From: Escherichia coli
GTDB taxonomy: Bacteria > Pseudomonadota > Gammaproteobacteria > Enterobacterales > Enterobacteriaceae
Length of the DNA: 64,000 nucleotides
NCBI RefSeq assembly: GCF_044324785.1
Contig: NZ_CP172127.1
Strand: one strand, 5' to 3'
The notes below the pieces were generated by a model. It saw only the letters and a program-made list of their open reading frames with translations. It did no database searches and was not told where the DNA came from. This document shows positions 128-19,159 of this stretch, one piece after another (positions within the stretch are counted from its first letter, which is position 1; the number at the start of each line of letters is the position of its first letter). A program made the position numbers and the translations under genes.

Positions 128-1252
128 TCAGTTTGTTAACGGACAAATCATGACCCGTTCATCAATGTTTGCGGGTAGCTCGCCTGGCGTGGGAACGCGT
201 TCACCCCGCTGAGCAGCCTGTGCCAGTGTGCGCAGCAAAAATACGCTGGCATGAGATATAGCCAGTTCCCGGGTTTCTGCACGGGTTTCAAGGTCGAAAT
301 CGTGCAGTGTCACGACAAACAGCCCGTTTCTGCACCCGACAGTTGCAGGGTAGGGAACAAAATAAGGTGAAATTTTGCTGGTCTGTTTACGCCTTGCATC
401 GAGTTTGCTGACCAGCTGATATGCCCGGAGATGCGTGTACCGTTTTAACATGTTCAGGGAGCGGTGGCCTGAAATAGCGGCAACTTCAATGACATTCAAT
501 GTACCAAGTTCGAAAAATCGGCTGATGGCTTCATGACGGAGATCGTGAAAATGCAGATTTTCTATTTTCAGGTCCAGAAGTGCGGTACGCCAGGCGCTTT
601 TGAAACCGGATGAGGTGTAACTGAACACATTGCCGTTTATCTGTTGTGGCAGAATTTGCAGGTAGTTGCGAGCTTTCCGGGAGAGTGGGACATCGCGTGG
701 TAAACCATTTTTCGTTTCAGGAAGATGCGCCACTCCGTGCTGCAAATCGAGGTGTTCCCAGCGTAATGTGAGAATTTCCCCCTGTCGCATTGCTGTTTCC
801 AGGGCCAGATGGAAGATAACGTAGAGCTGCTGATTTTTATCTCTGAAATAGCGGGAGAGTCGGCGTTCTTCGCCAGAAGTCAGGCGACGCTCTCGCCCAT
901 TACTGATTTTGGGTTTTCGGACCAGTTCAACAGGATTCATACGGCATGTCCCCCATTCCACACGGGCGATATTGAATAATGATGATAAAAGAGCAAGTTC
1001 AAGACGGACGGTGTTTCCGGTGATTTGACGCCCAGTTCGTGGGTTAATTTGAGCCAAACGCTGATCCCGGTAACTGGCGATATCAACGGTCGTGATTTCA
1101 TCCATATAGCGATCGGCCACAGGGTGACGTTTAATCACATTGACGCGATAAACCTCCTGCAGATGCCCTTTTTTATGGACGGAAACGGTTTTCAGGTATT
1201 TGTCCAGCGCCCGGTTGAGAGTCATTTTGCGAATTTTGATTTTTCGAAACAT
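128..1252 (-). CDS. rci: shufflon-specific tyrosine recombinase Rci (374 aa)
   Basis: Tyrosine-recombinase motifs in translation ([23 protein letters not shown]); lies immediately downstream of the pilV shufflon as in R64 and SPI-7. Start set to internal ATG at 1252 (MFRKIKIRK...); the 481-aa track ORF is an upstream extension that would run through shufflon repeat 1. Confidence 0.8.
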
Positions 1253-1314
1253 ATCGGCCTTCCACGATAAAAACGGGGAAGGTAGGAATAGTGAAACGGA
1301 AATGCAATATCGCC

Positions 1315-1333
1315 GTGCCAATCCGGTGTGTGG
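1315..1333 (+). repeat. shufflon 19-bp repeat 1 (gtgccaatccggtgtgtgg)
   Basis: Exact match to the repeat inside pilV (reverse complement of 2578..2596). Confidence 0.85.
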
Positions 1334-1705
1334 ATTGGCTTTGAATCCTACCCTGTGGGAAGCCCTATCCCATGGCCATCTGCCACTCCTCCACAAGGCT
1401 ATCTGTTGATGAACGGCCAGTCGTTTTCCTGTTCCCGGTATCCTCAGCTTGCCCGTGCTTATCCTGGCTGTAAATTGCCCGATCTGCGCGGTGTTTTTAT
1501 CCGTGGCTGGGATAACGGGAAGGGACTTGATGGTGATCGGAACAGACAACTCCTGAGTTATCAGGCCGATCAATCAGGCGTCTATCACGAACGTGGCGGA
1601 TGGCTGAAAGGGCATCATAGTGGTATGCCATACTGGGCACAGGGGAGTACCACAGAAATGCGTCCCAAAAATATTGCATTCAACTACATTGTTAAAGCCA
1701 GCTAG
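1315..1705 (+). CDS. silent alternative PilV C-terminal cassette A, phage tail-collar-like
   Basis: Open frame from repeat 1: [13 protein letters not shown]...[45 protein letters not shown], which resembles the conserved tail-fibre collar motif. No promoter or start of its own; expressed only after inversion. Confidence 0.6.
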
Positions 1706-1709
1706 GGAC

Positions 1710-2061
1710 TCACATCTGATAGGCATACACAGAGAAAACACCGTTACCACAGGCGTAATTTTGTGTTGGTCTGGAGATGATTTGATATGACGCTCCCACT
1801 GGCACGGCAAATGAAATAAATGCTGTCTTTCCGTAGGAGGGGTTATTGCTGGCATTCATACCAATGAAAGCGCCGTTCACATAGCCCTGAAGATTTGATG
1901 TGTTGGCGCAATCACCGCCACCGGCACCATTTCCACCGGAAGCGTACACAAACAAAGTTCCTCTGCCGTTATTTCTCCCGTTAAATGTTCCCCGGTGAGA
2001 ACCCAGATTGCTGTAACTTCCGTCAGGTGCACCAATCGTTCGCCACACACCGGATTGGCAC
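1710..2061 (-). CDS. silent alternative PilV C-terminal cassette A' (Gly/Asn-rich)
   Basis: Open frame on minus strand running from repeat 2 (CQSGVWRTIGAPDGSYSNLG...) to stop at 1710; convergent with cassette A. Confidence 0.55.
2043..2061 (-). repeat. shufflon 19-bp repeat 2 (inverted orientation)
   Basis: Plus strand reads ccacacaccggattggcac, the exact reverse complement of repeat 1. Confidence 0.85.
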
Positions 2062-2069
2062 GGAGGCCA

Positions 2070-2088
2070 GTGCCAATCCGGTTTGTGG
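2070..2088 (+). repeat. shufflon 19-bp repeat 3 (one mismatch: gtgccaatccggtttgtgg)
   Basis: Direct orientation; separated from repeat 2 by an 8-bp spacer. Confidence 0.8.
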
Positions 2089-2295
2089 CTTGGAGGCAAT
2101 AAAGTGAACTATTCTGCCTGTAAATGGTATGAAGCGACCTCCGCACATTTTATCGGTGGCAGAAGCGGAGGCTCTATTTATTACAAGCCGATTCAGTGCC
2201 CTGCCGGGTACGTCATGACAGGTACAAGAATGTACGGCATCGGAGATGGTGTTGATGAAGAGCACGTCGATGCTTACTGTTGCCCTTTTGGTTAG
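2070..2295 (+). CDS. silent alternative PilV C-terminal cassette B' (Cys-containing)
   Basis: Open frame from repeat 3: CQSGLWLGGNKVNYSACKWYEATSAHFIGG...CCPFG; convergent with the currently expressed pilV C-terminus. Confidence 0.55.
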
Positions 2296-2331
2296 ATTCC
2301 GAGGGCCGGTATTTAATTTTCTCCCGTTGGC

Positions 2332-3534
2332 TTATTTCTCACAGATTGCTATAGCCTGGAAACAACTCAGGGAGCCAGAGCCAGTAGCAATCCACCGATT
2401 GTTTTTGTAATCAGGGTAACTACCATCTGGTGAGTTGTATCCGTTATGGACCCACTGGGATAACCTGTAGCCGCCGGAGACCAACTTACTCCCCGATGGG
2501 CATACCGCGTAAGACGATGTCTGAAAGCACCCATTCCCGCCGGATACTGTGAAACGCTCTTTTTTGTCACTGTTTTGCCACACACCGGATTGGCACGAAA
2601 GTATTGCCCCTTTACTGTCGCGGCCTACAAGTCCGTCCGGTGAGCAGGAAGTACCTGCGGTGGCTGTTTTTTCCAGCTGTAAATACTCACCCGTGGAAAG
2701 ACGCCCCTCAGACCGGACAGTTCCACCACTGACTTTTCCTCCTTTGAGCTCTCCTTCGGTTGTGATCCCTTTGTTGTTAACAGCACGTATCCATTGGCTG
2801 TCCGTCATGGTGAAGCCGCCACCATTTGGATGTAACCAACGATTTGATGTGACATCGCCTGAAAATCTGGCGTTTTTACCACTGGCTTCATTGATATTGG
2901 TGATGCTGTTATTATTCATATCAATGCCAGTATGCATTCTGTTTAAATCGGGTCTTCCCTGAACGCTGTAGCGGTAAAGCCGATCGCTTTCCTCCAGATC
3001 TTTTCCAGCCATTCGCATGGCGATATGCCCCTTGTTGCAGGTAATCTGATAATTACTTCCCAGATCGGTCCAGCCGCCAAAGGCACCTGTAACGGAATTA
3101 TTCTGGAGCATAAAACCACCGAGTCCATTAATCTGGCCCGCTATGCGACGTAACCCATCTTCTTTAATATCCTGTCCTCCGGTTGTGCAGGTAAGTGCTT
3201 CCAGACGACCGGATAAATTATTTTTTCTGATACCGGTAATATAGCTGTGTCCAAAGGGGGAGCGGGAAAAACCGTTGTTCAGATATCCCTGCTGAATTAA
3301 TTCATTTACCGTGATGGTTTTACTGGAAAGTGAGCTGGTTTTATCAGCCACATAATTCTTTATTGCATTATTATATTCATCAGCATGTAAAGCCGCACTT
3401 TGATAAAGTTGTTCATTCAGCCAGTCTTCAATTTCTGAATAAATCATTGGCGTGGCGATACCAATTACTATCAGGCCTGCCAGAATTTCAAGCAGAATAA
3501 AACCTTTATCGTCATCGTGTCTGAATTTTTTCAC
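2332..3534 (-). CDS. pilV: type IVB minor pilin/adhesin PilV, current shufflon isoform (400 aa)
   Basis: Prepilin-like N-terminus (MKKFRHDDDKG/FILLEILAGLIVIGIA); C-terminal third lies inside shufflon segment B; GTG start overlapping the pilU stop. Confidence 0.8.
   Translation of the reverse strand: MKKFRHDDDKGFILLEILAGLIVIGIATPMIYSEIEDWLNEQLYQSAALHADEYNNAIKNYVADKTSSLSSKTITVNELIQQGYLNNGFSRSPFGHSYITGIRKNNLSGRLEALTCTTGGQDIKEDGLRRIAGQINGLGGFMLQNNSVTGAFGGWTDLGSNYQITCNKGHIAMRMAGKDLEESDRLYRYSVQGRPDLNRMHTGIDMNNNSITNINEASGKNARFSGDVTSNRWLHPNGGGFTMTDSQWIRAVNNKGITTEGELKGGKVSGGTVRSEGRLSTGEYLQLEKTATAGTSCSPDGLVGRDSKGAILSCQSGVWQNSDKKERFTVSGGNGCFQTSSYAVCPSGSKLVSGGYRLSQWVHNGYNSPDGSYPDYKNNRWIATGSGSLSCFQAIAICEK
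2578..2596 (-). repeat. shufflon 19-bp repeat 4, inside pilV at the constant/variable junction
   Basis: Plus strand reads ccacacaccggattggcac; in pilV it encodes CQSGVW. Confidence 0.85.
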
Positions 3535-4181
3535 GTGAATATCTCCGATGTGTGGATAACGGAATCAGGGAAGAGGGTCAGCACATACAGGGACCCGCAG
3601 AGAAACGGGGCAAACGGCAGCGCCAGCTGGCGTCTGCGACGGCAGAAAATGAGGATAAACAGAAATGCTCCGGAGGCTGCGGCGGTGATTATGAGTGGAG
3701 TGTGTTGCGGTTGCGTCCACATTGCGATCCCCGCAATCAGGAACACATCACCAAGGCCGAGCGCTTCCGTCCCTTTCGCTGCCAGAAAAATGCGTCGTAA
3801 CAGGTATATCATGCCGAACCACAGTGACGCGTTGAGCAGGGCATGAGCCAGTGAGTCCTGGCTGTATCTGAACGCTGCGCCCAGAATAATAAGAGAAAGC
3901 GTGAATATCCGGGGAAGCCGACAGACAGCAATATCCGTCAGCGTCATTACAGTTAATAATCCCGTCAGAATGGAAAGGAATAACAGTCCTGTCGCGTCAA
4001 CACCATATGCACCGTTGAGGCAAATGCTCAGGACAGCCAGAAGACAACAGATGCACACCGCAGCGTTGTGTGGGCGGGTATTGTGTACTTCTGATAAATA
4101 TACTGTGGCGGCGCTGTATGAAAGATACAGAATTGCCGCAAGGACAATCAGGATAATGCATATCGGGAGTAATTCAGACAC
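3531..4181 (-). CDS. pilU: prepilin peptidase (216 aa)
   Basis: Polytopic membrane protein in the expected pil-operon position; GTG start. Assigned by synteny with the R64 thin-pilus operon and hydrophobicity profile. Confidence 0.65.
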   Translation of the reverse strand: MSELLPICIILIVLAAILYLSYSAATVYLSEVHNTRPHNAAVCICCLLAVLSICLNGAYGVDATGLLFLSILTGLLTVMTLTDIAVCRLPRIFTLSLIILGAAFRYSQDSLAHALLNASLWFGMIYLLRRIFLAAKGTEALGLGDVFLIAGIAMWTQPQHTPLIITAAASGAFLFILIFCRRRRQLALPFAPFLCGSLYVLTLFPDSVIHTSEIFT

Positions 4182-4193
4182 AGTTACCTCAGC

Positions 4194-4670
4194 TTAATCT
4201 TTTCTGAAATACCGGTTGTGGATTATTCGGGCATATATCATGCGCCGGGCTGTGTTATTTTTGCTGAATCCTGCGTTGTAACTGCCAAGGCATTCCCAGT
4301 TAACGCCGCAGCGTTGAAAATGGCGGGCCAGTATCCAGGCACCGGTATGAATATTCAGGCAGGGCTTTTTAAGCAGTTCATCCTTGTTTTTAATGACGCC
4401 CAGTTTTTTCAGTTCAGGAATATGCACTGAATTAATCTGCATTATTCCGTAATCCGTACTGATGATTTTTCCGGATTTGTTTTTATTGTGATTTATCGCA
4501 GTGGCGACCAGGCCGCTTTCCTGCTGTGCAATGGTTTTCAGAAGCTCAGGGGCAATCAGGTAACGTTTTCCGGCCTGAATAAAACAGGAATCGAGATGAT
4601 TATTATTCATCACAGATGCGATTGATGTGTGACTGAATAAAAGCAGGACAGAGAGATATAACCATTTCAT
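4194..4670 (-). CDS. pilT: lytic transglycosylase, SLT domain (158 aa)
   Basis: Signal peptide followed by SLT-like motifs (TIAQQESG, YGIMQIN); in R64-type operons pilT is a transglycosylase, not the retraction ATPase. Confidence 0.75.
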   Translation of the reverse strand: MKWLYLSVLLLFSHTSIASVMNNNHLDSCFIQAGKRYLIAPELLKTIAQQESGLVATAINHNKNKSGKIISTDYGIMQINSVHIPELKKLGVIKNKDELLKKPCLNIHTGAWILARHFQRCGVNWECLGSYNAGFSKNNTARRMIYARIIHNRYFRKD

Positions 4671-4728
4671 TATGATAATCCCGGCAGTGACAGCATCCTC
4701 TGGTATTTAAGGATGCTGTCCGGAAACA

Positions 4729-5265
4729 TTAGCTGTTTGTTTCAAGGGTGATGTTATTTTTGTCGTTACTACATACTGTTACGGGATCCACAGTAGCCGG
4801 GGCGGTATTCATGATTTTGGTAAACATGGATGAACTGCGCAGGCTGTTAATGAGTTCCACGCAATTTTCTTTCGGTACATTATTGCTGGTAATCGTATAA
4901 CCATACTTATCTGCTGTTGCCTTAATGGTGACATCACCGCCCCAGGCATTTTTGGCCTTGTTACCACCGGCGATCATATCGGCCGGCAGGGAACCACTCT
5001 GCGTCAGCGTTTTGATATAATCACTGCTGGTATATTGTCCCTGGAACTTGTACTGCTTCATTTTTGTTGCAATAGTCTGCAGGTTTTTCAGTTCACGCTG
5101 GTTATCACTGGATGACATTGTGCTGGACATCTGACTTATTGCGAGAGATACCACAATACCGATGATAATCAGTGCACCGGCAACTTCCAGTAAGGTTAAA
5201 CCTTTATCCTCCTCTTTCTCTTTTTTTAAAGCAAAATAAGAATAAAGACATGATCTGAAGTTCAT
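4729..5265 (-). CDS. pilS: type IVB major prepilin (178 aa)
   Basis: Long leader then G/LTLLEV cleavage motif and hydrophobic alpha-helical N-terminus; AGGAG RBS upstream. Confidence 0.8.
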   Translation of the reverse strand: MNFRSCLYSYFALKKEKEEDKGLTLLEVAGALIIIGIVVSLAISQMSSTMSSSDNQRELKNLQTIATKMKQYKFQGQYTSSDYIKTLTQSGSLPADMIAGGNKAKNAWGGDVTIKATADKYGYTITSNNVPKENCVELINSLRSSSMFTKIMNTAPATVDPVTVCSNDKNNITLETNS

Positions 5266-5314
5266 ATATCACTCCTGGTTTATGGGATGTTTCAGAAATA
5301 TTCTGTATGCGGGA

Positions 5315-6415
5315 TTATTGTTTCAGCATGTCGCTGATACTGTAGATGGCAGATATCATGTTAAGAATAAAAAAGAAGACAAAACCTCCTGATATACCGG
5401 TAATAATTAATCCCATTCGTTTTACCCGTTTTTTTGCCTCTTCCAGCCACTGATCGGCATAGAGTGCCATGGTTGCCACTCTGTCCTCCCTTTCGGAGTT
5501 CAGGAGCAGTTTATTGATGCATATTCTGGACGGAAAATCGTAACCGGAATTTCGCATTGCTGTGGCCAGATTCTGACCGGATAATACATGTTTTCGTATT
5601 GCCTGAATTCTCTCCTTTAACCATTTATTCTTTTCTGCACCTTTTTCCATTCGGAGCAGCGCCTGCGAAAGAGGAATATTAATCTGCAGCATGGATGAAA
5701 TACTGAACAGATAATTCACCCCGTGTAAGGTCTGATACAGTGACCAGGGGGGAGCCTTGTCCAGCATCCTCCGGCCGGGGCCGGTATACCGGCTGAATGA
5801 AAAACGGATCAGAAGCGTCAGGGCGAAAATGGTCCCACAGAGCCAGAATCCGTACCCGATGAAAAATTCCGACATGCCGGCAAGCAATTTCATCTGGAAT
5901 GACCATTTATCTTCTGAAGCAAACGCACTGACGATGGGGATGATACGGGTATGGGCGTTGTACATATTCACCACACAGAGCGAAAGCAGCAGAAGGGGGT
6001 AGAGGCAGACGGCAATGAGGCTGGATGTCATTTCCCGCCGGGCTTTAACGGTTCTGGCCACCTGGAAAAGGGCGTCGGCAATATTTCCGCGCTCTTCCCC
6101 GTTTCTGATTAACGTGGCTTCCTCCGGTGGCACCCAGGTTAACAGGGCACCGGATAACATGCCGCTGGCTTTGATGGAATCGATGCATTCTTTTGCCAGA
6201 AAATACATGCCGGATGTGCCTTTCTTTTCACCAAAATCGGTTTCGATCTCGCAGAGAAATTCGAGTGCACGCAGGGACGGCGTTCCGTCACGTATCATGC
6301 CGCCCAGGGCTTCGTAGAACTCCACCCGGTTCAGGGCAAAGGTTTTTCTGGCTATCCAGACAGTCAGTGCTGTCAGCTCAATGTCGGTGTTGTTGAGTTT
6401 TTCCAGAAATCTCAT
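5315..6415 (-). CDS. pilR: type IV pilus inner-membrane platform protein, GspF/PilC-like (366 aa)
   Basis: Start set to ATG at 6415 (MRFLEKLNNTD...), immediately after the pilQ stop; size agrees with R64 PilR. Confidence 0.7.
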   Translation of the reverse strand: MRFLEKLNNTDIELTALTVWIARKTFALNRVEFYEALGGMIRDGTPSLRALEFLCEIETDFGEKKGTSGMYFLAKECIDSIKASGMLSGALLTWVPPEEATLIRNGEERGNIADALFQVARTVKARREMTSSLIAVCLYPLLLLSLCVVNMYNAHTRIIPIVSAFASEDKWSFQMKLLAGMSEFFIGYGFWLCGTIFALTLLIRFSFSRYTGPGRRMLDKAPPWSLYQTLHGVNYLFSISSMLQINIPLSQALLRMEKGAEKNKWLKERIQAIRKHVLSGQNLATAMRNSGYDFPSRICINKLLLNSEREDRVATMALYADQWLEEAKKRVKRMGLIITGISGGFVFFFILNMISAIYSISDMLKQ

Positions 6416-6416
6416 G

Positions 6417-7937
6417 TCAGTGCAGCAGCGTATAGCTGTCCTCGTCGATGGGAGAGATGTAATGGGCCGCCAGCGGATCAACCTGCCCGCTGTTGATTTT
6501 TCCCAGCAGATGCTGATTTCGTGTCATGCCGCCCAGCTCCCGGTGCCAGTATGTTCTGGCCTCAATACGCCCCTTTTCCCGGTACAACTGGAAAAAACGC
6601 GCATCCGGGGAGATGACTTCTGCGATCACCGTTCGTCCTGTCACGCCACGCCAGCAGTGCGGGCAGCCTTCATGATTTCGCAGATATACCTGGTCCGGGT
6701 TGCAGACGCTTTCCACCAGGCGCCGTTCATCATCCGTGCGCTCGGTAGCCACCTCATGCCAGGGGCGACGGCAGTGCGGACATATCAGCTGAACCAGACG
6801 CTGGCTCAGCAGGCCAATGAACAGTTGCGGGTCGGCAATCATCCTGGCCTGTACCCCCTCCATCTCAAGACGTTCGAGGATGTTAATCGGGTCGTTCGCA
6901 TGGATGGTGGTCAGCATCAGATGCCCGGTCATGGCGGCTTTTATTGCCGTAATGGCGGAATCGTGGTCACGGATTTCGCCGTTCAGGATCCCGTCAGGGT
7001 CAAGACGCAGTGCTGATTTAATGGAGTCCACCCAGCCCTGTGCGGAATCCATGACGGCGGTCTGAATGGCACCGGGTATACGGCCCTCTGGCGGGGATTC
7101 AATGGTGAACAGCCTGCGACGGGGCAGAAGAATACCGCCGGTATTGTTGAAGCCGTACTGTTCAAGGTACGCCGCAGAGGCGGTTCTCAGCGTGGTGGAT
7201 TTTCCTGAACCTGTTGGTCCTGAGAGCGTGATAATACCTTCAGGGCGCTGCAGAATACGGCGCAGGGTGCGCTCCTGCTCAGGGTGGTAGCCCAGCATGC
7301 TGAAGGTCGGGATTTGCTGACTGTCATCCTTGATCAGACGGAGCACAGCATAGAGGCCGCCCACGCAGGGATAGTGGGAGTAGCGTGCACCAAACAGACC
7401 GGCCAGTTTCAGGTACTGCTCTGAAAGACGCGCATCCTGAGGCACCCCGGGATCAAACTGTGTGCCCTTGATGACGTCGGTCATGCCGGAATAGGTGGCC
7501 CCCAGTAATTCGAGGCCTTCTTCTTTCCGGAGGATATCGAGCACTTCCAGTTCGCCGTGAACCCGGGCTTCCACATAGGTGAAGTCCGTGTTGTCTCGTC
7601 CCGGGGTCATATGAAGGTCTGAGGCATCCAGTTGAGCGGCTTTTCTGATGTAATCAAGAACTTTTCTTTGTACTGTGTTGATCCCTCCGTCGGATAAAAC
7701 GCCCGGTGCACGTTCCGTATTATTGCTGTTCAGGGTTGCGATAACGTCAAGAGTGGTAAAATCGAATTTGCTGATTTTTCCCGGATAGCGGGAGCGTAAG
7801 AGCGTCAGGTAACGTTGTACAGAGGTGATGTGCTTCTTCGCCTCGACGACTTTCACCCTGATTTTTCCGTCAGCGTCATGCTGAATTGCGACGAAATCAC
7901 GAATATCTTCAGGAGGCAGTTCGATAGTCTCTGGCAT
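6417..7937 (-). CDS. pilQ: type IV pilus assembly ATPase, GspE family (506 aa)
   Basis: Walker A (LSGPTGSGKSTTL) and tetracysteine motif (CPHC...CPHC). Confidence 0.85.
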   Translation of the reverse strand: MPETIELPPEDIRDFVAIQHDADGKIRVKVVEAKKHITSVQRYLTLLRSRYPGKISKFDFTTLDVIATLNSNNTERAPGVLSDGGINTVQRKVLDYIRKAAQLDASDLHMTPGRDNTDFTYVEARVHGELEVLDILRKEEGLELLGATYSGMTDVIKGTQFDPGVPQDARLSEQYLKLAGLFGARYSHYPCVGGLYAVLRLIKDDSQQIPTFSMLGYHPEQERTLRRILQRPEGIITLSGPTGSGKSTTLRTASAAYLEQYGFNNTGGILLPRRRLFTIESPPEGRIPGAIQTAVMDSAQGWVDSIKSALRLDPDGILNGEIRDHDSAITAIKAAMTGHLMLTTIHANDPINILERLEMEGVQARMIADPQLFIGLLSQRLVQLICPHCRRPWHEVATERTDDERRLVESVCNPDQVYLRNHEGCPHCWRGVTGRTVIAEVISPDARFFQLYREKGRIEARTYWHRELGGMTRNQHLLGKINSGQVDPLAAHYISPIDEDSYTLLH

Positions 7938-7946
7938 GATGGCACC

Positions 7947-8408
7947 TCACGGGAGTAGCGTCTGCCTGTTGCCGTTGTATTCCAGAATCACACTGTCCGG
8001 TGTGATTTGTTCCACCATGAACAGTGTACCGGGTAATGCCTGTCCGGCCCTGACATCAGTTTCAGTTCCTCCGGGGAGTATGACGCGTGCTGAAAGCTGT
8101 GGCTGAATACCAAAGATTTCTTTCAGACGGGGGGATGAAAATGCCTGTGAACCGGAGGAGGTGCCAGCCGCATTTTCCGGCTGATGTCCCGTGACAGAAC
8201 CGGAAACCGGGGAGATACCCTGTTCCAGTGTCCGCAATTCATGACGAATTTTTTCTCTTGCCAGCATCGCTTCATACAGGGCGGTTTCTTCCTGAATCTG
8301 CTCAATCTGCAGTTGTTTGTTCTGTGACGCGTCATTTTCGTTGCCGGCCACTGCCATTGCCGGTAACAGCAGGGCTGCAATCAGCAGCGCTTTTGTTTTA
8401 TCGTGCAT
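7947..8408 (-). CDS. pilP: pilus assembly protein PilP-like (153 aa)
   Basis: Internal ATG at 8408 gives a signal-peptide N-terminus (MHDKTKALLIAALLLPAMAVA); size matches R64 PilP. Confidence 0.65.
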   Translation of the reverse strand: MHDKTKALLIAALLLPAMAVAGNENDASQNKQLQIEQIQEETALYEAMLAREKIRHELRTLEQGISPVSGSVTGHQPENAAGTSSGSQAFSSPRLKEIFGIQPQLSARVILPGGTETDVRAGQALPGTLFMVEQITPDSVILEYNGNRQTLLP

Positions 8409-9693
8409 AATATTTACCTGTGAACTGATAACGGAAACGACCATTTTCCAGTTGTCTTGTGACAGAGAGAAAACGGACAGATGGCTCGCTGAAGCGCTCT
8501 GCCAGCTGGTTAGCCGGGAGTAGCGTCTGTATCTGCAGGTCATACTCTTTCCACGGTGGCTGGATGATGTTTCCGTTTTCATCAGTGAAGCTGTTATTGA
8601 CTTCCTGCCAGTCAATCTGCAGTTGAACTGACTGTGCGAGCGTGGTCAGTCGTTCCTGCAGGTCTCGGGTTTCCGGAAGGGAATCAACCGGGACAGGATT
8701 ATCCGGGAGCCGGAATGTGACCGGCAGTGCAACGCCGCCAGAGTTCCCTTCAGGCATAACAATAAACGGCCGGGTGTCTGTGAGTTCAGTGATGCGCCGG
8801 ATGAAGGCTGTCACTGTCGTGCCTGCTGTATTGGTGTATGAAGACCGCAGATTACCGCTGTTACCGTCAGAAGAACATTCAGCCAGGGTATAACGCCATC
8901 CGGCAGCAGACAGTGGCGTCTGGTTCCATGTTGTGCTGCATTGCCGGATAAATTCTCCGCTCTCAGGCTGCCTCGTCCATGGTGGCGTTATACGTGCTTC
9001 AGCTGCTTTCCGGGCGCTTTCTTCCCGTTCCGCTTTTTCCGCCTGCCAGATTTCATAACGTTGCCAGCCGTACCACGATGCGCCAAGCAGCGTGATGATG
9101 AGTAAGGCTGTCATTAACTGTGGGCCTCTGGACACGGGGAGCAGACGCGCTTCTGCCGGATGCTTTCTGGTGCTGATCAGGTTTGACAGCGGTAGCGGGA
9201 TACACCGACTGTCTGGTGAAAAACCGTCAGGTTCGTAGCGTACCCAGCCGTTTTCCGGTTCCGCATTGAGCATCAGGAACGTGTTGCGGGCTTCCGTGAT
9301 TTCAGTCGGGGTACCGGTAACGTCGTTAACCAGAATGCCATTAATCACCGATACAAACGCACAGGTGAGTTCAGCGTCGTCGTTCTCGTCGTTCCCGATG
9401 ATGAAAATGGCATACCCACCTGATTTGAGTAGCGGGCGTATTAACATTGCCAGTGACAGGCACTGGCGAATGTTACGGGGGATATCTGCATCCTGACGAC
9501 TGAGCAGGGCAATCATCATTTCATCACCGTTTTCACCGTCGTGGTTGTGGCAGGAAAGATACAGTTCTGCGCCCTGTGACCGGGCAAACCGCCGGGCATT
9601 CCGGTAACCGGGAGGTATGCTCTTCCAGTCAAGGCCCGCAAGGAATGCCTGTTTACCCGATATCAGTGAAACCGGACGAATTTTTTTCTGCAT
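8398..9693 (-). CDS. pilO: pilus assembly protein PilO-like (431 aa)
   Basis: Start at ATG 9693 (MQKKIRPV...); length equals R64 PilO as I recall it; one internal TM segment. Assigned by synteny. Confidence 0.65.
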   Translation of the reverse strand: MQKKIRPVSLISGKQAFLAGLDWKSIPPGYRNARRFARSQGAELYLSCHNHDGENGDEMMIALLSRQDADIPRNIRQCLSLAMLIRPLLKSGGYAIFIIGNDENDDAELTCAFVSVINGILVNDVTGTPTEITEARNTFLMLNAEPENGWVRYEPDGFSPDSRCIPLPLSNLISTRKHPAEARLLPVSRGPQLMTALLIITLLGASWYGWQRYEIWQAEKAEREESARKAAEARITPPWTRQPESGEFIRQCSTTWNQTPLSAAGWRYTLAECSSDGNSGNLRSSYTNTAGTTVTAFIRRITELTDTRPFIVMPEGNSGGVALPVTFRLPDNPVPVDSLPETRDLQERLTTLAQSVQLQIDWQEVNNSFTDENGNIIQPPWKEYDLQIQTLLPANQLAERFSEPSVRFLSVTRQLENGRFRYQFTGKYYAR

Positions 9694-9716
9694 TGACCCG
9701 TTCAAGGGAACCTCCG

Positions 9717-11342
9717 TCAGATTACGTGCGGTGTGATCAGCACAACCAGAATGGTGTCATCGTCACCGCTGTCAGTGCCGCCACCCAGCCCGAAGAATGC
9801 CGGGCTGCCGACGCCCTGGCGCACGGATTTGCTGCCGGACTGCCGGAATCCGCTGAGAATGACGGTCTGACCTGATTTCAGGTCGATGGTCTGGTTGATG
9901 GTTTTCAGGTCCACCGTGGGTACCTGTGCCCGGCTGCCGCCGCTCTCGAACACCTCAAAGGTGGGTTTGTCGGAGAGGTTCATGCTGAAGAGCAGCTGCA
10001 GGCTGCGCGCATCCGGCTGAATGAACGGCAGCAGGGTCATGTTGAAGCCGGTGGTGATGGTGGCGGCGTTCAGGGAGGTGCTGGTCCCGACGTTGGCCGT
10101 GGTGTCGGTGGTGACACCTTCGATATAGCCCTGCTGGCTGGCCACCTGCATGGGCACCGGCGTCATGTTTTTGGTGACGGCGGAGTTCTGTGTGACCACG
10201 CTGACGGTGCCCTGACTGGAGAGCGCCTTCAGGAAGGCCTTCGAGCCGGTGAGCTTACCGTCCACAATGGAGACGCCACTGGTGATGATGTCATCGGCGG
10301 CACTGCTGAATGCCCCTCCCAGCGTGAGGCCGAGACGTCCGTCGCTGAAGACGGCATTCCAGTCAATGCCGGCCTGGTCACGGCGGGTTTTTCTGACGCT
10401 GAGGACTTCCACGTTCAGCACCACCTGACGTCGCATCTCGCGGTTACGTGCCTCCACAAAACGGCTGACGGTGTCGAGGACCCGAGGGGTGTCGGTGACG
10501 GTGAGAAAGCCGGTGGCAAGCACCATCCGGCCGGTCCCGGGGGTCAGCATGGCACCGACGGCATTTTTCAGGTCCTCATAGAGGGTGGACTTCATGTCGA
10601 CCGTGGTGGTCTGGGTGTTGCTGGCCTCCCCGCTGAGGGTGCCGGCGTTACTGCCGGTACTGCTGCCGGATGAGGAGGAGGCGGTGCCACTGACCACCCG
10701 GGCGTTGTAGGTCACCTGAGAGTCCATGTAGGTGACCGGGAAGGTGCGTGTCTCCAGCCAGTAAAAGGTGATGGCGCGCCGGTCACTGTCGTAACGGTAC
10801 GAGATACCGAGCCGGGAGGCGACGGTATCCAGCAGCTGCCGCAGCCCGGTGGCGCTGAGTTCCGGCAGGACGGCACCGCCGCCCGGGGGGATGACCTGTG
10901 CGCCACTGCCGACGGCGGCCAGCGGCACCATGCCGTTCGGGTCCGGTGCGGGGATTGCGCCTGTCAGCTGCTGTGTGGGGCCGGTGGTGGCCAGCGCCTG
11001 CCAGACGTCGGCGGTGATGGTCACGGGGATACCGCAGCTTCCGGTGATGCGCTGGGCTATCTGCCGCAGGCTGATATCCCGGCGGGTGTTGATGATGATG
11101 GGGCAGCCCGGCAGGCTCTGGTGTGCGGGGCTGACGCTGACAGGGGAGGGGTTGATCCACTGTCGCGTGGTCTCCGTGACCACCGGCCGGGATTTACGGA
11201 GTTCGCCTGCGTGCCGGCGCGCTTTCTCCAGTGTGGCGGTGGCGTCTTTTTCCGTGTTGCTGATACGTTCGGCCGTACCGCAGCCTGACAGCAGCAGGGC
11301 GACGGCAGTCAGTGGCAGGAGCATGTGTTGTCTTTTTTTCAT
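9717..11342 (-). CDS. pilN: outer-membrane secretin lipoprotein (541 aa)
   Basis: Lipoprotein signal (MKKRQHMLLPLTAVALLLSGCG); secretin-like C-terminal region (...ILVVLITPHVI). Confidence 0.8.
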   Translation of the reverse strand: MKKRQHMLLPLTAVALLLSGCGTAERISNTEKDATATLEKARRHAGELRKSRPVVTETTRQWINPSPVSVSPAHQSLPGCPIIINTRRDISLRQIAQRITGSCGIPVTITADVWQALATTGPTQQLTGAIPAPDPNGMVPLAAVGSGAQVIPPGGGAVLPELSATGLRQLLDTVASRLGISYRYDSDRRAITFYWLETRTFPVTYMDSQVTYNARVVSGTASSSSGSSTGSNAGTLSGEASNTQTTTVDMKSTLYEDLKNAVGAMLTPGTGRMVLATGFLTVTDTPRVLDTVSRFVEARNREMRRQVVLNVEVLSVRKTRRDQAGIDWNAVFSDGRLGLTLGGAFSSAADDIITSGVSIVDGKLTGSKAFLKALSSQGTVSVVTQNSAVTKNMTPVPMQVASQQGYIEGVTTDTTANVGTSTSLNAATITTGFNMTLLPFIQPDARSLQLLFSMNLSDKPTFEVFESGGSRAQVPTVDLKTINQTIDLKSGQTVILSGFRQSGSKSVRQGVGSPAFFGLGGGTDSGDDDTILVVLITPHVI

Positions 11343-11531
11343 GCAGAAATCCTTGTGTGAAACGTGAAAACAGTGAGCAGAGCAGGGAGGGCAGAAGCGC
11401 TTCGGGACTGAAGTCTGCGCGTGATGGCGATATATCCGCGGGACATGACCGCGGCCGGATATGCAGACTTCAGTCCACAGGCTCCTCACACTGTGCGGGA
11501 CAGCGAAGGTTAACGGTGCAGTGATGTCCCG

Positions 11532-11969
11532 CTAGTTGAAATAAACAAATGCGCTGTCAGGAATGACGGACGGCACGCTGATACCGGTGTCCTGACCTGT
11601 GGTGTTCAGCAGTCGCCGCCCCTTCACCCGGCCTGCCAGCGCGGTTTTGTGGGTGATGTCTGCCAGCGCACCTGCAAGCCCCGGGCGGTCATCCTGCCAG
11701 ACAAAGACCCGCTGTCCGGCGATGATATGGCGGGTACCGTATACCGGGCGGAAACCCGTGGCGGTGACGGGGAGCGTGCCACCCCCCGTGCGCTCAGCCG
11801 GATGGGTGTACAGCCGGTCGTTAATGCCGTTCATGAGGCGGACCATCTCCCACGCACGTTCACGCATCTCCGCCTGCTCGCTGTACACGGTGACCCGGTG
11901 GGTACTGCTGTTGTGAAACCAGGTCAGCGCCACGGTCAGGGCCATGACCAGGGAGAGCGACCAGCCCAT
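11532..11969 (-). CDS. pilM: pilus assembly protein PilM-like (145 aa)
   Basis: Start at ATG 11969 (MGWSLSLVMALTVALTW...), directly after the pilL stop. Assigned by synteny and size. Confidence 0.6.
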   Translation of the reverse strand: MGWSLSLVMALTVALTWFHNSSTHRVTVYSEQAEMRERAWEMVRLMNGINDRLYTHPAERTGGGTLPVTATGFRPVYGTRHIIAGQRVFVWQDDRPGLAGALADITHKTALAGRVKGRRLLNTTGQDTGISVPSVIPDSAFVYFN

Positions 11970-11971
11970 GG

Positions 11972-12697
11972 TCAGTCTCCCGGTCTGTCGCTGACGTGCA
12001 CCACACACTGCGTGCTGTTGATGGCTGCATACAGCGGCGTCTGTGCGTCCTGATAGAGACGGAAGAGTTCACTGAGCGCGTGGCGGAACTCGCCGGTGAA
12101 ATGCAGCGGCGCATCGATGCTGTAATTGAGTCCGGGGTTCTGCCAGGCCAGCTGCCAGGTGCCACCGGCCTGACAGGGAACGGCGGCCACCCACTGCTCA
12201 AGACCGGCACGCAGCAGGGTTCCGCGGGCAAGAGTCCAGGTGGTCCGTGCATGCGCCGGTTGCGGCATGTTTGCTGATTTTTCCGCGGTTTTTTCCTGCA
12301 GACTGGTGGTGCCCGGGGTGGCCTGAGACGGACTGAACAGGGTGTTCCGCTCAATACGTACATGCTTCTTCTCCGTGTCGGTGATGGCGCGGAGCTGATA
12401 TTTTTTCAGCATGCGTTCCGTAACGTAATTCCACTGGTCATTTCCCTTCCATGACACCGTGCGGGGCGGCCTGACATCCGGTGCAATGTCAAATGTCCAT
12501 CCCGGCGGTATCAGTTGCTGCATGGCTTTTTTCAGTGATAACCCTTTACCGTCCCGGGGAATAAATTTCAGTGCTCCCGGAGCGCTGCTGACCGTGGACG
12601 ATGAGGGTGCACTGACCTGAGAAGGTGACGGTGCAGCAAAAAGTGGAACAGAAAATGCCAGCAGCGGCACAATAAGAAGTGGTTTCAGTGGTGTCAT
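11972..12697 (-). CDS. pilL: pilus assembly protein PilL-like, secreted (241 aa)
   Basis: Signal peptide (MTPLKPLLIVPLLAFSVPLFAAPSPS); first large gene of the operon. Assigned by synteny. Confidence 0.6.
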   Translation of the reverse strand: MTPLKPLLIVPLLAFSVPLFAAPSPSQVSAPSSSTVSSAPGALKFIPRDGKGLSLKKAMQQLIPPGWTFDIAPDVRPPRTVSWKGNDQWNYVTERMLKKYQLRAITDTEKKHVRIERNTLFSPSQATPGTTSLQEKTAEKSANMPQPAHARTTWTLARGTLLRAGLEQWVAAVPCQAGGTWQLAWQNPGLNYSIDAPLHFTGEFRHALSELFRLYQDAQTPLYAAINSTQCVVHVSDRPGD

Positions 12698-13494: not shown

Positions 13495-15003
13495 ATGTCC
13501 CTGAATCCCACCGATGAACAGTCAGCCATCATTCACTGGCAGGGGGAAAAACTGGTGGTGAATGCCTTTGCCGGTACAGGCAAAACCAGCACACTGGTGC
13601 AGTTCGCCGCAGCCTGCCCTGAGAGCCGGATGCTGTATCTGGCCTATAACCGCGCGATTCGTGATGAGGCGGAGCGCCGGTTTCCCTTTAATGTGGAGTG
13701 CAAAACCTCCCATCAGCTGGCGTATTCGCGGTTCGGAAAGCATTTCCGGCATCGTCTGGTGCCGGGGCTGTCAGTGACGGATGTAGCGAGAAAACTGAAC
13801 ACCCGCTACTGGACGCTTGCCCGTGTTGCCATGACCGCGCTGAATCAGTTCATCTGTTCGGCGGACGTGGCGCCCGGAATGCAGCATATGCCGCCTCCCG
13901 ACGAGATGAAGGGCATGTCGCCACAGGATGCGCTGCGTGCCGTGCAGATCCTCTGGCATGAAATGAGCAATCCGGATGGCAATTTTCCGGTCACTCACGA
14001 CACCTATCTGAAGCTCTATCAGCTTTCCTCACCGGATCTGTCACGCAGGTGGGATACGATCCTTTTTGATGAGGCCCAGGATGCGAATCCGGTGACGTCC
14101 GCACTGGTGCTGGGGCAGCGGTGCAGGGTGGTACTGGTTGGCGACCGTTACCAGCAGATTTATCGTTTTCGTGGTGCCAGCAATGCACTGTCGCATCCGG
14201 CACTGAACGGGGCGGACCGTCTCTGGCTGACGCAAAGTTTTCGTTTTGGTCCTGCCGTGGCCGGGGTGGCCAGCCAGTTACTGAAGCGTGCCGGCGAGAG
14301 CCGTGAGGTGACCGGCAGGGGCGGGGATGATGAAGTGCTGACGGCAGGTGAAATGCGTGCGCGCGTGAAGGCAGGGAAGATGACCGGTCACAGGGCGATA
14401 CTGAGCCGGACGGTGGCCGGTGTGATTGGCACCGCACTGATGGCGGCAATGCGTGGCAGGAAGGTTTACTGGGTGGGGGGCATTGAAGGCTACAGAACGG
14501 AGGCACTGGAAGATCTTTACTGGTTTCAGATGGATATGCCGGAGCGGATGCACAGTGACAGACTGCGGAAGGACTACCGGGGTTTTGACGAGTACCGTCA
14601 TATTGCGAAGGTGACGAAGGATGTGGAAATGAATCAGTCCATTCGTCTGCTGGAGCTGTGCTTTCCGCTGCCGAAGAAACTCGAACTTCTCAGAAAGCAC
14701 ACCGTCACGAATGAACAGGAGGCGGATATCACGGTCTCAACGGCACACCGCAGTAAGGGACTGGAGTGGTCACTGGTGGTACTCGATGATGATTTTCAGG
14801 ATATCACCGACCCGCTGATAAGCGAGCAGGAGCGGCGGGATGAAACCAATCTGCTCTATGTGGCGGTCACCCGGGCGCGCAGAACGCTGGTTCTCAATGA
14901 ACTCATGCAGCAGCTGACGGAAGCTGCCGGCGATGGTGGTGCACCCGGAAACGCGCCGGTGCAGGGGAAGGAAGACGATGGTGTGGAGGGAGAGGATGTT
15001 TAA
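13495..15003 (+). CDS. UvrD/Rep-like superfamily-1 DNA helicase, short form (502 aa)
   Basis: SF1 motifs in order: Walker A (AFAGTGKTS), DEAQD (motif II), VGDRYQQIYRFRGA (III), SFRFG, TAHRSKGLEW (V), LYVAVTRAR (VI); GGAGG RBS. Confidence 0.8.
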   Translation: MSLNPTDEQSAIIHWQGEKLVVNAFAGTGKTSTLVQFAAACPESRMLYLAYNRAIRDEAERRFPFNVECKTSHQLAYSRFGKHFRHRLVPGLSVTDVARKLNTRYWTLARVAMTALNQFICSADVAPGMQHMPPPDEMKGMSPQDALRAVQILWHEMSNPDGNFPVTHDTYLKLYQLSSPDLSRRWDTILFDEAQDANPVTSALVLGQRCRVVLVGDRYQQIYRFRGASNALSHPALNGADRLWLTQSFRFGPAVAGVASQLLKRAGESREVTGRGGDDEVLTAGEMRARVKAGKMTGHRAILSRTVAGVIGTALMAAMRGRKVYWVGGIEGYRTEALEDLYWFQMDMPERMHSDRLRKDYRGFDEYRHIAKVTKDVEMNQSIRLLELCFPLPKKLELLRKHTVTNEQEADITVSTAHRSKGLEWSLVVLDDDFQDITDPLISEQERRDETNLLYVAVTRARRTLVLNELMQQLTEAAGDGGAPGNAPVQGKEDDGVEGEDV

Positions 15004-16525
15004 GCGGTTCAGACGTATGCTGCCCGGCACAAAGGGCACGGAGCCTGGCGTGGTCGCGCCGGTGATACCGGCAGGGTTTTATGCGCCGCTCACGGCAGAG
15101 GCACTGTTATCACCAGAGCACAGGGAGCTGAGGCTCAGGCAGGTCTGGGATAACAATCCGATGCCCCGTGATGTATACGACAGGATGTGCCTTGAACCAC
15201 TCAGCCGGCTGCTGCTGAACACCCAGAACGTCCCGGCAACACGGGAAGGACGGTGGTCCCGTGCCGGTGGATTTGGTGATCTGACGGTACTGTACACCAC
15301 GTATGCCGTTCGTCTGGCAAGAGGGTACATGTTTCCACCGGATGCGACCCCGGAAGACCAGGCGGCTCAGGCCGCAGTCTGGCATGCGGTGATTTTCTGG
15401 TCAGCGCTGTTTTACCACCTGCCCCTGCTGGCGCACCTTGAGGGGGAACTGCTGAGTGGGCGGGGCTGGCAGCCAGGAATTTCTGTGCCTGACGAACCTT
15501 TCCGTTTCCGGTTCAGGAAGACGGCGCCGCAGGGTACGGAAGCGCAACAACTTGCGGCCCTGACTGCCGGCACGCTGTTACCGGACGGCGCAACGGCCTG
15601 GCTTGTGACGGCGCCGGGCGCACTGCAGAATCTGGCCGGGGCGCTCTGGCATCAGCATCCCGGGATGGCGCTGATTCGTGATGTGCTGCAGGAAGCGGCA
15701 AGGCAGACAGAGAGTCCGCTGAATACCTGCGCTGTCACTGCGCCGGTTACTGCGGAGGCTTCAGCAGACATTCGTCCTGCTGACCCGGTGGTGACCGGCA
15801 GCACGGACAGTGTGGTGGCAGTCACTGAGGTGCAGCCGGCAGAGGAGGTGAAGACTGAGAGCGTGCAGACAGAGACTGAAGGTGGTGGTGAGTCCGCCGG
15901 GGCGTCAGAGGTGCCGTCCGCACAGCAGGAACTGACGGTTCAGACAGCGCCAGTGGTGACGGCAGATGATGAAGCGGTCAGTGCTGCTCCTGCGGATCAG
16001 GACACAGCAATGCTGCTGAGTCTTTTTTCAGCAGATGAGTCCGAAACTGCTGAACCTGAAAACAGTATTAAATCGTCAGCCGATCGGGACGGCCAAAGTG
16101 ACGTACCGGCAGTACAGGGAGAACAAACCAGCGTTATTTATCCGGAGGGCGAAGCAGATACGGAAGAGGTGGATTTTATTACTTGGCTGAAATCGGGGTT
16201 GTCATCGGGGATGATTGAAATAAATACACCTTCCGCGAGAGTGCATTGTATTGCGGGGTATGTTTTTTTGTGTGTCCCGGATATTTTTTATCTGTATCAG
16301 AAAATGACGGGAAGCCGTCGTGACCGCAGGAGTGTTCAGGCGTTGTTTGAACGTTCCCGTATTCACAAAATCCGGGAAGGTGAGCGTTTTTTCAGCCTGC
16401 ATCTGTATAGTGTACCTGACAGAACAGGGAGTTATAAAGCTGTAAGCGGATATCTGGTTAAAAGCCGTTATCTGTGTGGTTATAACGCAGTGCCCGGGGA
16501 CAGTGAATACATTGCTTTTCCATAA
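14996..16525 (+). CDS. hypothetical 509-aa protein: N-terminal domain, long acidic low-complexity linker, conserved-looking C-terminal domain
   Basis: ATG overlaps the helicase stop (ATGTTTAA) with GGAGGG RBS; no Walker A and no HD motif found by eye; alternative starts at 14933 or 14978. Confidence 0.6.
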   Translation: MFKRFRRMLPGTKGTEPGVVAPVIPAGFYAPLTAEALLSPEHRELRLRQVWDNNPMPRDVYDRMCLEPLSRLLLNTQNVPATREGRWSRAGGFGDLTVLYTTYAVRLARGYMFPPDATPEDQAAQAAVWHAVIFWSALFYHLPLLAHLEGELLSGRGWQPGISVPDEPFRFRFRKTAPQGTEAQQLAALTAGTLLPDGATAWLVTAPGALQNLAGALWHQHPGMALIRDVLQEAARQTESPLNTCAVTAPVTAEASADIRPADPVVTGSTDSVVAVTEVQPAEEVKTESVQTETEGGGESAGASEVPSAQQELTVQTAPVVTADDEAVSAAPADQDTAMLLSLFSADESETAEPENSIKSSADRDGQSDVPAVQGEQTSVIYPEGEADTEEVDFITWLKSGLSSGMIEINTPSARVHCIAGYVFLCVPDIFYLYQKMTGSRRDRRSVQALFERSRIHKIREGERFFSLHLYSVPDRTGSYKAVSGYLVKSRYLCGYNAVPGDSEYIAFP

Positions 16526-16555
16526 CAGCACCGGGTCATTCATCCGTTCAGGGAG

Positions 16556-17668: not shown

Positions 17669-17872
17669 ACATGCTTGACATCGGACCAGAATGGTGTAAG
17701 CATTTTTGCGTATGCGAGAGCGTGACACCTGTTACCAGCAGGTGCCACGCTTGAGGATACGATACTGAAACCACAGTGTAACCAGACTTACACGGAGATT
17801 TCGTTATGACCGGATCCTGTATTAGACGCCCGTTAAGGATCTCATCCCTTAACCAGCGTACTTTGATGCGTT

Positions 17873-17948
17873 TGGTGCCCGGAGGCGGAATCGAACCACC
17901 GACACGGGGATTTTCAATCCCCTGCTCTACCGACTGAGCTATCCGGGC
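17873..17948 (-). tRNA. pheV: tRNA-Phe (anticodon GAA), island integration site
   Basis: Reverse complement reads GCCCGGATAGCTCAGTCGGTAGAGCAGGGGATTGAAAATCCCCGTGTCGGTGGTTCGATTCCGCCTCCGGGCACCA; position downstream of yqgA matches pheV. Confidence 0.9.
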
Positions 17949-18053
17949 AACGGGGCGCATTAAACCTGATTCGCCTCGTCTCGTCAATCAAATTTCTTCA
18001 ATTTAGTGCAGACTGCACAATCTATCATCACTTTGCCGCTATTGCACACATTG

Positions 18054-18761: not shown

Positions 18762-19159
18762 AAGAGTTCCTGTTAGCTGTATTGTTTGATTTTCTTATTA
18801 TGAACTTTTGGCGCCGTCGATGGCTTGTTTGTTCGCAAAGTCCTGGCTTGCACGCTTTAGCGAAAGGTGCCATGATTGCGCGAATTTTCTCCTCTCTGTA
18901 CGGAGTTTGCCCGATGCACGCCACCTCCTTACATTCTCTCGCTTATCGCCGTTTTGCGCGAAACTCTTCTCTTTTTATGCTACTGCTCATGCGGTGAAGT
19001 TAACGCACGCTCACTGCAGGACAACAGTAAAATCAGAGCGTTTCTGCTTTTACTGATGTCTGGTGGTCGGAGCTGGTGACCAGTTTGACCCATATCTCAT
19101 GGGGCAGGGTTTTCCACCTTGTCCGGTATTCTTACTTCCCCTAAACGGGTTTTGCGCTT

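Follow-up and report, generated by a model that had tools for sequence, protein, structure and literature searches.

A two-segment Rci shufflon with four PilV tips, one of them related to phage tail fibers, in a chromosomal element of Escherichia coli

The stretch of Escherichia coli DNA considered here (contig NZ_CP172127.1, assembly GCF_044324785.1; 64,000 nucleotides, hereafter called the window) carries near its start a candidate shufflon, in which the recombinase Rci would exchange the C-terminal tips of the pilus adhesin PilV by DNA inversion. The gene rci, four copies of a 19-bp shufflon crossover site (sfx), four alternative tip cassettes (T1 to T4) and the constant part of pilV follow one another, and together they form the subject of this report.

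The sfx consensus GTGCCAATCCGGTNTNTGG was searched across the 64-kb window with up to 3 mismatches, and 100 dinucleotide shuffles of the window served as the control. Four sites were found, each with 0 mismatches (Table 1), and the inverted pairs that they form were recovered independently by a repeat finder; the shuffled windows contained a mean of 0.14 sites, and four sites were reached in 0 of 100. A first-pass annotation, made from the letters of the sequence alone, had listed four 19-bp repeats of alternating orientation, and on re-inspection its coordinates were exact and all four repeats were perfect matches. Each site consists of a 7-bp core, GTGCCAA, and a 12-bp right arm, TCCGGT(GTG/TTG)TGG, in which one triplet varies, while the 14-base stretch preceding the core differs at all four sites. 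This asymmetric structure, with a core, a right arm and an unconserved left arm, is described for R64, R721 and TP114 (PMC9045228; PMC5430464).

Translation from base 2 of the successive sites gives CQSGVW, CQSGVW, CQSGLW and CQSGVW, and each frame stays open into a cassette of its own, as had been claimed for the repeats. The cassettes converge in pairs, with facing stop codons 4 bp apart for T1 and T2 (1705 and 1710) and 36 bp apart for T3 and T4 (2295 and 2332). The open reading frames (ORFs) and the sites thus agree with the earlier description of two invertible segments, convergent cassette pairs and four PilV C-termini. The labels A, A', B and B' used in that description are out of step with the homology to R64 tips, because the collar cassette, which has no R64 counterpart, shares its segment with a tip of the 'shufflon protein A' type.

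The recombinase gene starts 62 bp from sfx site 1, and its product is 75% identical to R64 Rci over 373 amino acids (aa), with the HDLRHEA and LKRYTH motifs kept; the gene is intact and, as proposed at first, immediately beside the repeats. A longer reading of rci, with 481 aa (128-1573) from an upstream TTG through sfx site 1 into T1, was rejected as a longest-ORF artifact, since the NCBI Prokaryotic Genome Annotation Pipeline (PGAP) places the start of the identical gene of E. coli GF60 at the ATG at 1252. In an NCBIfam profile scan, rci had only weak, sub-threshold matches to XerC/XerA tyrosine recombinase models, and no family matched PilV or the four tips; the PGAP names for these genes evidently come from another type of rule than NCBIfam profiles.

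The constant region of pilV matches Pfam Shufflon_N (PF04917, E=2.2e-51 and 8.9e-33, residues 37-317) and reads in frame into sfx site 4. In the window it is fused to T4, giving a 400-aa ORF (2332-3534), and the form fused to T1 would be 442 aa long. In GF60 the protein is named by PGAP as shufflon system pilus tip adhesin PilV. Throughout the window rci, the four sfx sites, the four cassettes and the pil genes are all open and undamaged.

Further support for a shufflon was provided by natural isomers. The window was compared with four complete E. coli chromosomes (GF60, TUM1886, APEC E19035 and CM2), in which both segments recur; across the five loci the segments are 99.9-100% identical and the flanks 98-100% identical over the roughly 130 bp compared per side. 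The five loci have five different arrangements, none of them repeated. Read from rci to pilV, they are T1> <T2, T3> <T4 in the window, with T4 at pilV; T3> <T4, T1> <T2 in GF60, with T2 at pilV; T4> <T3, T1> <T2 in TUM1886, also with T2; T3> <T4, T2> <T1 in APEC E19035, with T1; and T2> <T1, T4> <T3 in CM2, with T3. Across the five loci, every one of T1 to T4 turns up joined to pilV at least once, which bears out, between strains, the first-pass prediction that inversion could join pilV to any of them. Every breakpoint falls exactly at an sfx site, and each arrangement is 1 to 3 inversions between inverted sites away from the window. The TTG variant of the right arm accompanies T3 in all isomers of the two-segment group, as is expected if crossover lies in the 7-bp core. 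Since the loci are near-identical, their five arrangements indicate that inversion has taken place in this lineage.

Table 1. Coordinates of the shufflon and of the adjoining parts of the integrative and conjugative element (ICE) in the window.
Feature	Coordinates	Strand	Remarks
rci, shufflon-specific tyrosine recombinase	128..1252	-	Intact ORF, 374 aa; PGAP coordinates of the identical gene in GF60
sfx site 1	1315..1333	+	Core GTGCCAA and right arm TCCGGTGTGTGG; encodes CQSGVW for T1
Tip cassette T1	1316..1705	+	129 aa from CQSGVW; Collar-type domain; silent in the window isomer
Tip cassette T2	1710..2060	-	116 aa; homologue of the R64 'shufflon protein A' tip; silent in the window isomer
sfx site 2	2043..2061	-	Sequence GTGCCAATCCGGTGTGTGG; encodes CQSGVW
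Spacer, 8 bp	2062..2069		Between the head-to-head sfx sites that divide the two segments
sfx site 3	2070..2088	+	Sequence GTGCCAATCCGGTTTGTGG; variable triplet TTG; encodes CQSGLW
Tip cassette T3	2071..2295	+	74 aa, C-terminus ...CCPFG; silent in the window isomer
Tip cassette T4	2332..2595	-	87 aa, C-terminus ...AICEK; fused to pilV in the window isomer
sfx site 4	2578..2596	-	Closes the pilV constant region; encodes CQSGVW
pilV constant N-terminal region	2597..3534	-	GTG start at 3534; prepilin leader and Shufflon_N
ORFs beside pilV	3531..12697	-	Named from the colinear GF60 annotation; ORF list and GF60
ICE mobility module: UvrD-type helicase, TraI-domain relaxase, tyrosine integrase	13495..17668	+	ORFs and GF60 annotation
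Integrase ORF	16556-17668	+	Adjoins tRNA-Phe
tRNA-Phe (pheV position, beside yqgA and speC)	17873..17948	-	ARAGORN, Rfam and GF60; integration site and right boundary of the element

The surroundings of the shufflon place it in a chromosome, as the first-pass annotation had stated. The first 6.5 kb of the window are 99.8% identical to the GF60 chromosome, and apart from the shufflon rearrangement the two are colinear at 99.0% identity over 24 kb, from the pil operon through the UvrD-type helicase, the TraI-domain relaxase, the integrase and tRNA-Phe into the core genes yqgA, speC, nupG, mltC and mutY. Among the best hits listed, the matches of at least 99% were chromosomal and the I-complex plasmids did not exceed 95%; a plasmid origin of the window was rejected on these two grounds. 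The tRNA-Phe was the only match of an Rfam scan of the whole window.

The type IVb pil operon is complete within the window, and the GF60 annotation names its genes from a pilL-like gene to pilV. To the left of rci, GF60 carries ParA, an 'SPI-7-type island replicative DNA helicase' (DnaB-PI), ParB, a STY4528-family protein and topoisomerase III, together with TIGR037xx ICE genes, TraD and TraG of mating-pair formation type G (MPF_G). Because this DNA is the rest of an SPI-7/PAGI-2-type ICE, the pilus that the shufflon serves is taken to be the mating pilus of a pheV-integrated ICE, and the gene content indicates that the locus is the right end of such an element, inserted at tRNA-Phe (pheV). 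ICEEc2, YAPI, CTnscr94, ICEPan and Salmonella ICES1 are grouped as ICEs of this kind in the literature (PMC4458695; PMC3401170; PMC11537424); membership in the ICEEc2 type is taken here from these secondary citations. The ICEEc2 pilus serves mating-pair formation and is needed for transfer, as cited in PMC4458695.

The GF60 copy of the element has insertion sequences (IS) and pseudogenes in its cargo region. Beyond rci (17790-19915 of the GF60 stretch) it contains a 'conjugal transfer protein TraF' gene and an 822-bp gene; the two stand in this order in R64 as well, with the annotation traE for the second of them, and in IncK2/Z plasmids. The presence of such an I-complex block within an MPF_G-type ICE raises the possibility that the pil-shufflon block was gained from an I-complex plasmid, and it may have been acquired as a unit larger than the pil operon. 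A related chromosome, that of TUM9803, has one pil/shufflon locus near 0.96 Mb and another near 5.13 Mb, and the shufflon of one of them consists of a single segment (T3/T4); in principle, the sfx sites of the two elements could cross-react with either Rci.

Several of the closest known relatives of this shufflon are plasmid-borne. R64 (IncI1) shares with the window the 19-bp site, with its GTGCCAA core and TCCGGTNNNTGG right arm, and the gene order of rci, shufflon and pilV, then pilU down to pilL. It differs in having seven sfx sites, segments A-D and seven tips, as opposed to two segments and four tips; it has no Collar cassette, whereas T1 of the window sits opposite an A-type tip; and its carrier is an MPF_I plasmid, in contrast to the chromosomal MPF_G-type ICE. 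Among IncK2/Z plasmids, pTB-nb2 (NZ_CP033633.1) has exactly two segments, like the window, T1/T2 included, and pZPK-H21 (NZ_LR999864.1) has four. These plasmids pair T3 with a C-type tip, whereas the window pairs it with T4, and the replicon is a plasmid instead of an ICE. One- and two-segment shufflons have been described in the IncI2 plasmids pMRY15-131_2 and pMRY15-117_2 (Sekizuka et al. 2017, PMC5430464), where the two-segment shufflon has 2^n x n! = 8 structures, found by long reads to coexist in a clone (PMC5430464). They differ from the window in their segments, BD and C, and in the IncI2 backbone, and no Collar cassette is reported in them.

On the chromosomal side, the SPI-7 shufflon of Salmonella Typhi, treated by Morris and co-workers in 2003, reportedly has a single invertible segment and two PilV forms, as opposed to the two segments and four forms of the window. 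SPI-7, ICEEc2, YAPI, CTnscr94, ICEPan, ICES1 and PAPI-1 resemble the element described here in being chromosomal ICEs at tRNA-Phe with a type IVb pil operon that ends in pilV (PMC4458695), and pilV with rci has been found in Salmonella ICEs (PMC3401170).

The individual cassettes differ in how close their relatives are. T2 shares 66-67% identity with the tip that R64 has at pilV in the reference record NC_005014, and its homologues bear the PGAP label 'shufflon protein A'. T3 is 83% identical to another R64 tip, whereas for T4 no R64 tip exceeds about 30% identity and the nearest other relatives reach 56-57%. The T4 half of the segment (2302-2577) is rare: of 5426 complete E. coli genomes, 9 have it (8 chromosomes and 1 plasmid), always with 100% identity, and T4 DNA is present at 99% identity or more in 7 PLSDB plasmids. 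The T3/T4 segment is a hybrid: its T3 half matches, at 98-99% identity, the T3 of other loci, in which the partner is a C-type tip, and beyond 2301, 6 bp past the T3 stop, the homology to segments with T3 in other shufflons is lost. It seems that half-segments recombine where the two convergent stop codons leave a gap. An origin of T3/T4 by deletion from a four-segment shufflon was rejected, as T4 has only 56-57% protein and about 65% DNA identity to the nearest cassette there.

The T3/T4 segment also occurs alone, in plasmid pLS45-2 and in TUM9803, and in three-segment shufflons (AR_0085, SF-088 and FDAARGOS_1287). In FDAARGOS_1287 (1580-2260 of the locus compared) the shufflon carries the T3 cassette twice, one copy being paired with an A-like tip in a 680-bp segment, which looks like a product of unequal or illegitimate recombination, or a misassembly. 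The number of segments across related E. coli ICEs and IncK2/Z plasmids ranges from one to four, and IncI2 plasmids with one, two and three segments have been characterized by long reads (PMC5430464). The two-segment layout, presented in the first-pass annotation as an intermediate architecture, is therefore an ordinary one.

Identity to IncK2/Z plasmids, compared by region over 128-6415 of the window, is mosaic: 99.7-99.9% in the T1/T2 segment, 99.1% in the T3 half, 97-99% in pilR, pilS and pilT, 92.4% in rci and 82% in pilU, with the pilV constant region conserved only in its last 227 bp. Judging by this pattern, ICEs and plasmids seem to trade segments and cassettes without regard to the backbone that carries them.

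A search with PHROG profiles found no phage family for T2, T3 or T4, and by its sequence T1 is the only phage-related tip of the four. T1 matches the full length of the Pfam Collar model (PF07484, positions 1-57 of 57, E=4.1e-13, 49.5 bits); the tail-collar motif that had been noticed in this cassette is thus real and embedded in a full-model match, but the homology to phage fibers spans the whole cassette and not the motif alone. Among PHROG tail-fiber families, the best match was PHROG 523, 'tail collar fiber protein' (E=2.1e-41). Among solved structures (PDB), it was the receptor-binding tip of T4 gp37 (2xgf, E=2.8e-20), followed by short tail fibers, and the 2xgf alignment spans the N-terminal collar of T1 (residues 10-71) and its C-terminal strand ...KNIAFNYIV (111-127). 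In phage genomes, the matches to T1 cover about 97% of the cassette at 42-47% identity and lie at the C-termini of tail fibers of P2, HK106, P1-like phages and Aeromonas and Vibrio phages, and in annotated records a tail-fiber assembly gene usually lies directly after the fiber gene.

The commonest homologue of T1 in the protein collection lies in arrays of 6-9 Collar cassettes of P1/p15B-like phage-plasmids. These arrays are the phage counterpart of a shufflon, built from the same cassette family as T1. In three such contigs, short Collar ORFs were seen in both orientations beside a serine invertase gene (Resolvase and HTH_7 domains) and a Caudo_TAP gene, and the arrangement of the array differs between the three. 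The Cin/Min/Gin systems of P1, p15B and Mu-like phages have Collar cassettes 40-49% identical to T1 over more than 90% of its length, and they share the logic of the shufflon, with a constant N-terminal part and switchable receptor-binding C-termini. They differ in the recombinase, a serine invertase unrelated to the tyrosine recombinase Rci, in the recombination sites, and in the carrier protein, which is a trimeric fiber in the phages and a pilin in the shufflon.

An alignment of 30 sequences, 8 PilV-borne and 22 from phage cassettes, falls into three parts: the collar, which is conserved and has 31 invariant columns, an insert that is hypervariable, and a final strand that is again conserved. 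The PilV-borne members, from E. coli, Salmonella, Citrobacter and Arsenophonus, form a clade 62-70% identical to T1 that opens with the sfx-encoded CQSGxW. Their insert is 31-33 aa long, versus 46-73 aa in the phage cassettes, and carries the conserved motif GG.L.GHH.GM. An HxH motif right after the collar, the iron-binding site on the fiber axis in T4 gp37, is present in 13 of the 22 phage cassettes and is lacking in the PilV-borne clade; a cysteine pair (C39 and C52 of T1) is found in 5 of the 8 PilV-borne members and in 0 of 22 phage cassettes. The short insert, the lack of HxH and the cysteine pair may be adaptations to life on a single pilin without a Tfa chaperone.

The T1 cassette is also widespread in I-complex plasmids: 408 plasmid records have it with at least 95% identity, in many cases within an annotated pilV, and PGAP calls the silent cassette a partial 'phage tail protein'. 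In Pectobacterium brasiliense, a chromosomal PilV with a fusion of Shufflon_N (PF04917) and Collar (PF07484) has been described, with inversions confirmed by long reads (Milman et al. 2023, PMC9881135; CP084655.1, UCP91044.1), and its recipient specificity was proposed there to come from a repurposed phage tail domain (PMC9881135). That protein belongs to another genus and is about 524 aa long (1575-bp gene), as opposed to the 442 aa of PilV with T1, and it is likened to the latter by its domains. A more specific origin of T1 can be put forward only tentatively: a direct exchange of modules between P1/p15B-like serine-invertase tail-fiber systems and an Rci shufflon, in which a chaperone-assisted trimeric tip was re-engineered for a single pilin through the short insert, the loss of HxH and the new cysteine pair. 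If this were true, the ICE, or a plasmid with the same cassette, could target the same lipopolysaccharide (LPS) structures as a phage, and the phage resistance and the conjugation susceptibility of recipients would be coupled.

The sfx anatomy, the intact rci, the Shufflon_N region, the natural isomers, the element context, the homology of T1 and the literature all point in one direction, and it is very probable that the locus is a functional Rci shufflon that yields four PilV variants. As the genes are laid out, pilV is predicted to be transcribed from the pil operon; it has one constant N-terminal region, which ends in an sfx site. Rci would recombine any two inverted sfx sites, with the crossover in the GTGCCAA core, as inferred from R64 and TP114. 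Inversion of the T1/T2 segment, of the T3/T4 segment or of both together would allow 8 possible arrangements, and the outcome would be four PilV proteins alike except for their last 68-123 residues.

In the type IVb mating pilus of this SPI-7/PAGI-2/ICEEc2-type ICE, PilV would act as a minor pilin and as the tip adhesin. The tip would set the recipient surface structure that is bound, most likely LPS core sugars by analogy with R64 PilV, and a clonal donor population would thus hedge across recipient types during transfer of the ICE. Within this set, T1 would contribute a Collar-type receptor-binding module of tail fibers, from the family shuffled by a serine invertase in P1/p15B-like phages. 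The PilV tips of R64 and TP114 determine recipient specificity and bind LPS (PMC9045228; PMC12282955; PMC5430464), deletion of rci locks the TP114 shufflon (PMC9045228) and the PAPI-1 pilus recognizes recipient LPS (PMC5297154). By analogy with these systems, we lean toward the view that the tips choose conjugation recipients by binding LPS, with less assurance than for the shufflon itself.

Several points weigh against this interpretation. Isomers that differ between strains reflect past inversion in the lineage, and not current switching or its rate. Loss of switching does occur, as the close relative TUM1886 has a frameshifted rci. In another close relative, CM2, pilS is frameshifted, and these genes indicate that decay of switching or of the pilus happens in this lineage. 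The MPF_G and maintenance genes were read in the GF60 copy only, the corresponding left part of the element lying outside the window. Binding of LPS is extrapolated from the tips of R64, to which identity is 30-83%, and in the case of T1 from phage fibers. Collar tips of phages work as trimers and are encoded beside a tail-fiber assembly gene; the phage homologues have such a gene, but none of the tfa/Caudo_TAP kind was found beside the shufflon among the window ORFs and in the GF60 annotation. Lastly, an AlphaFold monomer model of T1, computed from the 30-sequence alignment, is only moderately confident, with a mean predicted local distance difference test (pLDDT) score of 66 (84-93 in the collar part and about 50 in the insert). 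A Foldseek search with this model placed 2xgf first and gp12 next at low TM-scores, which agrees with the sequence result and adds little to it.

The alternative that survives best keeps the inversion machinery and changes its purpose, with variable tips that serve host-cell adhesion, self-association or biofilm formation instead of the choice of recipients. A role in self-association was reportedly proposed by Morris and co-workers in 2003 for the SPI-7 pilus of S. Typhi. Hosts of the chromosomal element include avian-pathogenic and human extraintestinal isolates, a link of type IVb pili and shufflons with adhesion and biofilm is discussed in the literature (PMC3377399), and pil mutants of YAPI were less virulent (PMC4458695). 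However, the ICEEc2 pilus acts in mating-pair formation and transfer, as stated above from the same source, the pil operons of Salmonella ICEs made no difference to Caco-2 invasion (PMC3401170), and the cassettes of the window are 99-100% identical to those of conjugative IncK2/Z plasmids, where their role is in liquid mating. Adhesion in place of recipient choice is accordingly judged unlikely, although the two are not mutually exclusive and may coexist.

It is less probable still that the shufflon, although intact in sequence, has stopped switching and is stuck with T4 at pilV, owing to silence of rci or of the pil operon or to decay of the ICE. The frameshifts in TUM1886 and CM2, the IS insertions and pseudogenes in the cargo region of GF60, and published I-complex plasmids with inactive shufflons (PMC3377399) would fit such a state, but in the window the shufflon and pil genes are undamaged, and the occurrence of five arrangements in as many near-identical loci speaks for recent activity. 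An explanation of these arrangements as assembly artifacts of a repeat-rich region can be set aside as very improbable: shufflons are a documented assembly problem (PMC5430464; Brouwer et al. 2015 as cited in PMC12282955), yet those papers blame misassembly on real heterogeneity of the shufflon within a clone, so that artifacts would still imply switching, and all five arrangements come from assemblies at the 'complete genome' level and are legal inversion products in which each tip is complete with its own right arm.

Taken as a functional shufflon, the locus is made of components that have all been described or annotated in kind, and PGAP already annotates these genes. A chromosomal shufflon (SPI-7), shufflons with one to four segments and a PilV-collar fusion (2023) all precede it, and a full-text literature search joining pilV shufflons with tail fibers returned little besides Milman et al. 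(PMC9881135). Because the idea has a precedent in Pectobacterium (PMC9881135) and many sequenced plasmids have the cassette, the finding extends known biology and opens no new question.

What it adds is that chromosomal ICEs of E. coli would carry the same recipient-targeting switch as the I-complex resistance plasmids and would swap tip cassettes with them, which bears on predicting which strains an ICE or a plasmid can reach. It also bears on genome assembly, since the shufflon region is heterogeneous within clones. The tip derived from a tail fiber is the most interesting part, as it may couple the host ranges of conjugation and of phages, and T1 would offer a tractable case of a fiber tip working on a pilin.

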